Source: Eledone cirrhosa (lineage: Eukaryota). From it: 64,000 nt of DNA. The notes beneath the pieces are model-generated. The model ran no database searches and was not told the origin of the DNA. It saw only the letters and a list, made by a program, of their open reading frames with translations. The position numbers were made by a program, and so were the translations under genes. The stretch lies in the NCBI GenBank assembly GCA_964016885.1, contig OZ024740.1, forward strand, positions 215,884,001-215,948,000, written 5' to 3'. Below, piece after piece: positions 18,517 to 19,240 of this stretch (positions are counted from its first letter, which is position 1; the number at the start of each line of letters is the position of its first letter).

Positions 18517-19238
18517 AATAACTTCTTTTAATTATTGTTCGCGCTGGCCTGAGGTATCTGATCTTTAATGCGAAGAAATACATATGAGGCCAGAAGATCA
18601 CTGATGATGGATATTCCTGGCTTCGTGTTCTATTTTTTAATTCATATGTATCTCATTCGCAACAACGCAGCACGCCATTTCTCATTCCTATATTTTTTCC
18701 CTTCGCTGTGACCTGTCTTTTTCTCTTCCCTTACTGATATCCTCTTTCTCTCTCCTTGTACCTCTTACTTTCATTCACCCACTCTGCTAGTCACCCTCTC
18801 TCGGCTAGCCTCTTCCTCACACTTTCACTCACTCACTCTCTGCTACTCACCCTCTCACACTTCCTCCCGTCCGACACTGTGTGAAATTCTTTTCTCGCTC
18901 ACATTTTGCATGGCCAAGATGTGTCTTTCGTCTTCTCGCCAATGATTCGCTAGATCTTATGTTCACATGTATCACTGACTTGTTTTCTCATTTTCTTCTC
19001 TTTACGTTGCCTCACCATTCTTGTTTGTTTACATGTCTCTCTTTCTCCACCCAATTCTTTTTATCCCAATAACTTATTTTAGTTATTGTTCGCGCTGGCC
19101 TGAGGTATCTGATCTTTAATGCGAAGAAATACCTATGATGGCCAGAAGATCACTGATGATGGATAGTCCTGGCTTCTTGTTCTATTTTTTAATTCATATG
19201 TATCACATTCGCAACAACGCAGCACGCCATTTCTCATT

Positions 19239-19240
<2 letters not shown>
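18517..19240 (+). mobile_element. Family A PLE-terminal-like unit with ~170-bp direct repeats (pseudo-LTR / retrozyme-like)
   Basis: 18517-18690 is repeated at 19069-19241. Each repeat carries the permuted HHR motif. The unit is flanked by (TA)n. Confidence 0.8.
19095..19169 (+). ncRNA. Permuted hammerhead-like motif, family A (second copy 18544-18617)
   Basis: AGGTAT-C-TGATCTT-taatgcgaa-GAA-ATACCT-atgatggccag-AAGATCA-CTGATGA-tggatagtcc. Confidence 0.6.

Follow-up and report, generated by a model that had tools for sequence, protein, structure and literature searches.

The closest described systems are the type-SGC hammerhead ribozymes, a non-circular permutation of the hammerhead reported by Eckert, Friedrich, Weinberg and Weinberg in 2023 (PMC10085705). 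That report describes 583 type-SGC sequences with metatranscriptomes as their source, and non-circular hammerhead permutations are so far reported there only from circular RNAs of metatranscriptomes. Cleavage in cis at the predicted site was validated in vitro with a core mutant and with compensatory mutants, and disruption of stem II abolished the cleavage of SGC-3. The published descriptor starts with stem III (4-7 bp), UH, stem I (4-7 bp) and 0-8 nt, continues with stem II (2-6 bp), CGAAA and the second strand of stem III, and ends with 0-15 nt, the second strand of stem I, CUGAUGAUG or CUGAUGAG, and the second strand of stem II. In some bona fide SGC ribozymes, 0 nt lie between the distant helix ends. 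In a literature search whose coverage leaves out most subscription journals, the type-SGC term occurred only in PMC10085705, and the same search returned no paper on non-circularly permuted hammerheads in retroelements.

Mobile units of a related kind are the retrozymes, among them the animal non-LTR retrozymes (Cervera and de la Pena 2020, PMC7229834). A connection between animal retrozymes and the pseudo-LTRs of Penelope-like elements is described in a preprint by Li, Clavereau and Pollet (2026, 10.64898/2026.07.22.740005). Naiads insert into (TA)n, have no canonical hammerheads and sometimes show a split core, according to Craig et al. (2021, PMC8557442). In the motif named 'HHR_half_core' there, the second half lies on either side at 35-50 nt, and the split cores were left unfolded.

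The window analysed here is a 64-kb stretch (215,884,001-215,948,000) of the 3.0-Gb genome of Eledone cirrhosa, and the positions below are counted from its first nucleotide. It contains a two-repeat unit without a real ORF, oriented on the plus strand and set between two target microsatellites, a (TA)n run upstream (18503..18515, seen in the sequence) and a (TA)31 run downstream (19241..19302, seen in the sequence and by the repeat finder). TA runs also flank other copies of the family. Repeat 1, the upstream pseudo-LTR copy (18516..18700, plus strand), was delimited by the direct-repeat families D2 and D4 and by alignments, which showed it to be slightly decayed relative to the family. The internal region of the unit (18701..19066, plus strand) is CU-rich and, by sequence and ORF check, non-coding. 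Repeat 2, the downstream pseudo-LTR copy (19067..19240, plus strand), was placed by direct repeats and core patterns, and the 3' end of the element lies at 19240. The repeat finder located the direct repeats at 18511-18693 and 19062-19245 and matched them in two pieces, one of 77 nt with 94% identity and one of 106 nt with 97% identity, the spacing being 551 and 552 bp for the two pieces. These values bear out the two direct repeats about 552 bp apart that an earlier note on this DNA had described. The repeats themselves are real, but their length is 183-184 bp rather than the ~170 bp given in that note. The absence of an ORF and the insertion in (TA)n, both also claimed there, hold as well. 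The only ATG ORFs of at least 40 aa encode 47 aa (18568-18711) and 95 aa (19135-19422), the latter passing through the (TA)n run, and TA runs are present on both sides.

Core patterns and alignments revealed a second insertion in the window, which belongs to a sister subfamily (5545..6225, both strands, head to head) and is bounded by TA runs. In this insertion, a 5'-truncated inverted copy on the minus strand (5545-5770) faces a plus-strand copy (~5770-6225). The two cores are located at 5590-5656 (minus) and 6131-6196 (plus), and their stem I reads UGGUC/GACCA.

The 33-nt and 18-nt core patterns each have four matches in the window, compared with 0.00 and 0.07 expected, and the pattern AATGCGANGAAATA, 10-30 nt, CTGANGA has 5,427 exact matches in the genome, compared with none for the reversed control. 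Thus, the core motif is not a product of chance. Searching with a 111-nt query gave 1,647 first-look candidates, and the 40 of them that were scored yielded 43 matches with 89-100% identity. Pattern searches and fetched loci distinguish at least nine subfamilies, with a unit size of 551 bp here and of 502-549 and 458 bp in other subfamilies. Comparisons of 30 loci showed variable 5' truncations, partial tandems (repeat-internal-repeat), copies of more than one unit and head-to-head inverted truncated copies. Typical copies have two repeats, and most comprise 1 to 2-and-a-fraction units; three-unit arrays occur at loci L045 and L046. Among 41 terminal repeats from 26 loci, 17 have their 3' end near repeat position 177, 18 near position 135 and 6 elsewhere. 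TA runs adjoin almost all of the 35 terminal repeats ending near 135 or 177, and the element itself is TA-like at both positions. The locus is one insertion of a high-copy non-autonomous repeat of the Penelope/retrozyme type, an ordinary kind of mobile DNA. The Penelope-type insertion anatomy in (TA)n and the many family copies agree with the retrozyme/pseudo-LTR-like mobile unit that had been proposed from this one stretch.

The family resembles the animal non-LTR retrozymes, as far as the sources cited above describe them, in its non-coding head-to-tail units with a hammerhead-type core each, its many dispersed copies and its link to Penelope, and the release of its units would likewise proceed by double cleavage, which here is predicted. 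It differs from them, within the same sources, in unit size (458-551 bp vs. ~170-400 bp), in having few-unit copies instead of long arrays, in inserting strictly into (TA)n, and in a core that is not a type I hammerhead, whereas retrozyme units are of type I and are expressed as circular RNA. As described in PMC8557442, the pseudo-LTRs of Penelope-like elements with minimal type I hammerheads and the (TA)n-targeting Naiad and Hydra clades share with the family partial tandems, an adjacent inverted 5'-truncated copy, variable 5' truncation, the (TA)n microsatellite target and a ribozyme motif near the 3' end. Unlike the Penelope-like elements described there, the unit has no RT/GIY-YIG ORF. Two GIY-YIG fragments of Penelope-like elements lie beside TA runs in the window, both without the motif. 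A non-exhaustive search found no autonomous partner carrying the repeat. A repeat pair 2.9 kb apart at locus L051 was considered as an autonomous copy and rejected, as it encloses a nested, unrelated element on the opposite strand. None of the 119 loci covered by a metagenome scan carries the module, one of them giving a chance match to a single criterion.

Each repeat carries one RNA module on the plus strand. In repeat 1, the module begins with the P0 hairpin (18517..18536, AAUAACU/AAUUAUU, with AGUUAUU as the family form). The 5' strand of Px, an extension of stem III, follows (CUGGCC, 18544..18549) and has its partner at 18588-18593. Block S (18552..18558) consists of the proximal 5' strand of stem III, AGGUAU, and C17, and the cut is predicted after C18558. 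The 5' strand of stem I (UGAUC, 18559..18563, with its partner at 18596-18600) is followed by the linker UUUAAUGCGAA (18564..18574), which runs from stem I to GAAA and is nearly invariant among the subfamilies. Block G (18575..18581) contains GAAA (18575-18578) and the proximal 3' strand of stem III, AUAC. The 3' strand of Px (GGCCAG, 18588..18593) is connected by two nucleotides, AA (18594-18595), to block C (18596..18617), which comprises the 3' strand of stem I (GAUCA), CUGAUGA (18601-18607), a U and a local hairpin, GGAUAUUCC (18609-18617), with one-sided changes only. The corresponding parts of repeat 2 on the plus strand are P0 (19068-19087), Px (19095-19100/19140-19145), AGGUAUC (19103-19109), stem I (19110-19114/19148-19152), GAAAUACCU (19126-19134, with GAAA at 19126-19129), CUGAUGA (19153-19159) and the local hairpin (19161-19169), and the predicted cut lies after C19109. 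Both repeats and 60 family copies have the block order S (site), G (GAAA) and C (CUGAnGA) on one strand. AUC, GAAA and CUGAUGA occur in that order in both repeats, in line with the C-B-A motif that the earlier note had assigned to each of them.

The pairing was analysed in alignment A2 of 60 copies, which were picked by a pattern requiring GAAAUA and CUGANGA, so the invariance of these columns is by construction. Stem I (UGAUC/GAUCA) has 5 bp, of which three change on both sides, and 96.7% of its cells are paired. In Px (CUGGCC/GGCCAG), five of the six pairs change on both sides and 94.7% of the cells are paired, supporting the earlier proposal that the CTGGCC/GGCCAG pairing extends helix III. 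P0 has 6 pairs with 91.3% of cells paired, one of them changing from A-U to G-C in 6 of the 60 sequences. Over the whole structure, 91.0% of the cells are paired vs. 25-43% with slid partners, and the observed covariation score was reached by none of 500 shuffles. Fully paired variants that occur at least twice number seven for Px and six for stem I, the subfamilies counting as lineages and not as independent events. The paired forms include CUGGCC/GGCCAG, CCAACC/GGUUGG, CCAGCC/GGCUGG, CUGAUU/AAUCAG and CUGAUU(U)/AGUCAG for Px, and UGAUC/GAUCA, UGAUU/AAUCA, UGGUC/GACCA, UAGUC/GACUA and UAGUC/GGCUA for stem I; CUAGCC/GGCUAG, CUCGCU/AGCGAG, CUAGG/CCUAG and UUGUC/GACAA are further paired variants in other copies.

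The proximal part of stem III (AGGUAU/AUACCU, 5-6 bp) is almost invariant. One of its pairs varies in one subfamily, being U-A in 72, C-G in 19, U-G in 9 and C-A in none of the 100 copies listed. The compensated lineage, running from U-A through U-G to C-G, is taken as a single event, since its C-G copies are part of a 2-kb stretch that was duplicated at the DNA level. Four loci have C-G in the upstream repeat and U-G in the downstream repeat. Their interpretation as dimers copied from two-repeat templates was dropped, as the four loci are copies of one 2-kb duplicated unit and are 93-99% identical.

Stem III thus defined consists of 5-6 proximal pairs, an internal loop and the 6-bp Px, which together form one long hairpin. 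This hairpin of Px and stem III is present in the minimum-energy fold of 8 of 13 subfamily representatives. Stem I pairs the loop of the hairpin with the 3' tail, so that stems I and III cross and form a pseudoknot. Compensatory changes, present in both stems in many subfamilies, indicate that the RNA module is real and selected for its fold. The folding energy of the module is not unusual (z = -1.23, with 24 of 200 shuffles folding as well), and the 551-nt unit gives a modest signal (-89.6 kcal/mol, z = -2.66) with a fold that is not rod-like. Subfamily comparison gave no partner for the linker UUUAAUGCGAA / UUUAAUGCGA; the candidate pairings examined did not covary. Reading the subfamilies led to the rejection of two pairings, one between UGCGAA and a UUCGCA located downstream of the module, the other between UCGCR and a UGCGA located upstream of Px, since changes in one strand are uncompensated. 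For the helix that joins the far sides of stems I and II in type SGC, GGCCAG could pair with a downstream CUGGCU in two subfamilies, and the other subfamilies have no conserved or covarying partner there.

Comparison of the copies indicated that all invariant bases of the hammerhead core are present, with variation only at N7, H17 and the base before GAAA. In 53 copies chosen by a pattern requiring most of the core, N7 is U in 47 (CUGAUGA) and C in 6 (CUGACGA), and H17 is C in 37, A in 14, U in 1 and G in 1. N7 and H17 are positions at which hammerheads tolerate variation. A sample anchored on P0, and hence independent of the core, contained no subfamily without the three blocks among ~35 distinct loci counted by eye; the exceptions, also judged by eye, were one rearranged copy and a handful of point-mutated ones. 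Bases outside the core, namely those of UUUAAUGCGA, UGAGG and AUGAU, are equally invariant.

With type SGC as characterised in PMC10085705, the module shares the block order, all core bases, the covarying crossing stems I and III and the extra base after CUGAnGA (CUGAUGAUG), a string of the published descriptor that is present in the window. However, the module lacks both the C11.1-G10.1 pair and a stem II that would join the strand of GAAA to that of CUGAnGA. The distance from stem I to GAAA is ~10 nt, formed by the conserved linker UUUAAUGCGA, vs. ~3 nt in the SGC ribozymes of that report, and the stretch between stem III and stem I is consumed by the 6-bp covarying extension of stem III. 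The setting is also different, a chromosomal retroelement with thousands of copies vs. the metatranscriptome circular RNAs described there, and cleavage is here only predicted.

In the 60 copies, the strands that precede GAAA and follow CUGAUGA do not form a stem II. Instead of C, an A or a U precedes GAAA. The position before GAAA and that after CUGAUGA form A-U in 36 copies, U-G in 9 and U-A in 2, with other combinations in 13. They are thus paired in 47 of 60 copies, and the flanks of GAAA and CUGAUGA are not complementary beyond that single pair. The local 3-bp hairpin after CUGAUGA-N shows no double changes. Filing the module as a member of type SGC was rejected because stem II is absent, being closed locally, and the GAAA strand enters from the stem-I loop. 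The canonical hammerhead types I-III were rejected because rotating C-G-S does not yield S-G-C and because Rfam has no matching model: at the gathering score it gave nothing in the 64 kb, and a search of 18300-19400 at E up to 10 gave no ribozyme either. The weak Rfam matches are microRNA models on the TA run only. An HDV-like ribozyme was discarded because only 2 nt are available at the place of P4 and J4/2, and the hairpin ribozyme, box C/D and the k-turn show only partial resemblance. By its sequence and covariation, the module is a selected, pseudoknotted variant of the hammerhead, with a block order known only since 2023.

The best explanation, to which an even chance is given, is a high-copy non-coding Penelope-like element whose terminal-repeat RNA has an S-G-C core and is predicted to cleave itself after C18558 and C19109. 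Catalysis by the module as such is about as likely as not. With Px closed, two nucleotides (AA) link the far end of a ~17-layer stem III to stem I, and this connector looks incompatible with a simple monomeric hammerhead fold. The steric argument is not proof, given the SGC ribozymes with 0 nt in the published set (PMC10085705). A closed Px would hold a single repeat off, and a single repeat should rest in the off state because Px is more stable than stem I and is transcribed first. Two routes may lead out of this state. In one, Px would open and leave a 14-nt linker between stem III and stem I, which would then lie within the 0-15 nt range of type SGC as given in PMC10085705. In the other, the CUGAUGA tail of another repeat would pair with the hairpin loop. 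The free-duplex energies are -1.4 to -5.4 kcal/mol for stem I and -4.0 to -10.1 kcal/mol for Px. As Px is far more stable than stem I, there is a slight lean towards the route using the tail of the other repeat rather than the opening of Px; the weakness of stem I relative to Px disfavours both. That one repeat might complete the other, as the earlier note proposed, is plausible. The dimers of minimal Penelope-like-element hammerheads work by a different mechanism, in which ordinary type I motifs have their helix III extended.

In the self-cleaving explanation, an RNA of 551 nt would result from cleavage at both sites, and its ends would be kept close for ligation by stem III and Px. Nicked (TA)n DNA would prime reverse transcription at the TA-like repeat positions ~135 and ~177, which would account for 3' ends that are fixed, 5' ends that are ragged and copies that exceed one unit. 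Every genomic repeat retains sequence on both sides of the predicted site, indicating that the RNAs that were copied had either escaped cleavage at this point or been ligated again after it. A census of 5' ends by eye showed (TA)n-UGAUU to be the commonest class of 5' junction, with ~10 of ~50 loci. The census was set aside as evidence of cleavage, since the A-at-17 subfamily reads UAUA followed at the junction by UGAUU and TA microhomology explains the junctions equally well.

A possible alternative, to be held tentatively, is that the module derives from a hammerhead and is not catalytic, its hairpin, loop-tail complementarity and conserved linker serving as a recognition or dimerisation element for the copying reverse transcriptase; the retroelement would be the same and nothing would be cut. 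Structures at the 3' end common to some LINE/SINE pairs offer an analogy. The absence of stem II would fit such a role, as would an invariance outside the core (UUUAAUGCGA, UGAGG and AUGAU) equal to that of the core itself. The RNA module is also 93-135 nt away from the fixed 3' ends, a region in which the template would be expected to be recognised, and the RNA behind every copy was intact at the site. Naiad-type elements, as presented in PMC8557442, thrive without canonical hammerheads. However, recognition alone gives no reason for an intact core in at least nine subfamilies with variation at the tolerated N7 and H17, and leaves unexplained why this core adjoins covarying stems I and III as in a ribozyme validated in PMC10085705.

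A special case of the self-cleaving explanation, which builds on the earlier note, is doubtful: two repeats would be obligatory and the hammerhead would act in trans, the CUGAUGA tail of one repeat pairing with the hairpin loop of the other, and only RNAs with both repeats would be cut. The 551-nt product could circularise and would then be stable. The 2-nt connector after the ~17-layer stem III suggests such an arrangement, and so do the covariation of Px, which hence must form, its greater stability than stem I and its transcription before the 3' strand of stem I. Typical copies have the two repeats required, and stem III together with Px would keep the ends of the product together. However, with 5 bp and -1.4 to -5.4 kcal/mol, stem I is a weak helix for bridging ~400 nt, and covariation cannot separate pairing in cis from pairing in trans. 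Moreover, type SGC cleaves in cis, in some cases with 0 nt between the far ends of the helices according to PMC10085705, so that a dimer is not needed in principle. The remaining reading, a chance or decayed look-alike made of relics of a rearranged hammerhead that have no present role and are carried by an element mobilised otherwise, agrees with the lack of an Rfam match and the non-significant folding z-score but is highly improbable, since compensatory substitutions preserve stems I and III in many subfamilies, which points to selection on the fold, and all sampled subfamilies have kept an intact core.

Such a retroelement family, with its thousands of copies and its rich natural covariation, would extend the S-G-C ribozyme topology from its published setting to eukaryotic mobile DNA. 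It would offer a natural test of how far the connectivity of stem II can be broken, and would supply a specific candidate for the ribozyme that is missing from Penelope-like elements without canonical hammerheads. The most far-reaching version, that the module is the first S-G-C hammerhead in a eukaryotic chromosome, gated by two repeats through a Px lock and making stable 551-nt circles as templates for the Penelope RT, is unlikely in its full extent. Stem II would there be closed on itself and the GAAA strand delivered from the stem-I loop. If true, the gated version would account for the 'half-core' motifs of Penelope-like elements without a hammerhead as well. Should the module not cleave, it would still show clearly how a hammerhead core can be retained for a different function.

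Canonical minimal type I hammerheads are present elsewhere in the genome, with 18 over the cut-off among 74 scored. The ORFs beside these loci gave no Pfam match, and the loci reach TA runs within ~190 nt. These canonical hammerheads sit in another short repeat family, which ends in TA runs at two alternative points.

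A ~2-kb unit of the Eledone cirrhosa genome (loci L052 and L068-L075) is duplicated at several sites near chromosome ends, and its copies are 93-99% identical. Thus, its spread was by amplification at the DNA level rather than by retrotransposition. The ~2-kb unit contains two or three 458-bp units, which belong to one subfamily of the main family, whose repeats carry the predicted S-G-C hammerhead core.

At locus L051 (2235-5100), a retroelement with an RT-like ORF (..YIDD..) has split a main-family copy, in which it is nested on the opposite strand. The nesting mimics a 2.9-kb element with main-family repeats on either side, and the whole arrangement occurs twice, ~1 Mb apart. 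On the minus strand of the chromosome holding the window (C1:2568200-2568290, inside locus L053), the last base of the repeat in one copy is the predicted cleavage-site base (..GGUAUA), and internal-region sequence follows directly; this is a single case.

The window holds a second main-family insertion at 5545-6225, of a sister subfamily, in which a plus-strand copy lies head to head with an inverted 5'-truncated copy. Its stem I is UGGUC/GACCA, and the 5' strand of the stem-III extension is one base shorter than in relatives. Long (TA)n runs lie on both sides of the insertion (5290-5379 and 6240-6450). (TG)n and (TA)n microsatellites are very abundant in the window, at 18164-18250 and many other places, and on either strand many of the stop-to-stop ORFs are artefacts of simple repeats.

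The window also carries two other retroelement fragments. A 5'-truncated Penelope-like fragment (19303-20157) shares a TA microsatellite with the main-family copy at 18517-19240. It encodes a C-terminal GIY-YIG domain that passes the cut-off (PF01541, E 8.7e-05), with C-x5-C-x2-C ahead of the domain. Near 19862, its reading frame is interrupted. A direct repeat of 70 nt in this fragment (19848-19917 and 20048-20117, spacing 200 bp) looks, from its sequence, like a pseudo-LTR. No hammerhead-like motif was found in the fragment. In the second fragment (1908-3652), a weak GIY-YIG match that falls short of Pfam's cut-off (E 7.6e-04) comes after an RT-like tail (YRDD).

A separate repeat family of the same genome (L054-L067, for example L055:1500-1546) carries a canonical minimal type I hammerhead, comprising CUGAUGA, GUCC..GGAC, GAAAC, AUU and GUC. 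By sequence inspection, its tail (GGCUUCUUUG..CUCU..UUAA) loosely resembles that of the main family. Copies of this family are also terminated by (TA)n, ~55 nt or ~190 nt beyond the ribozyme.
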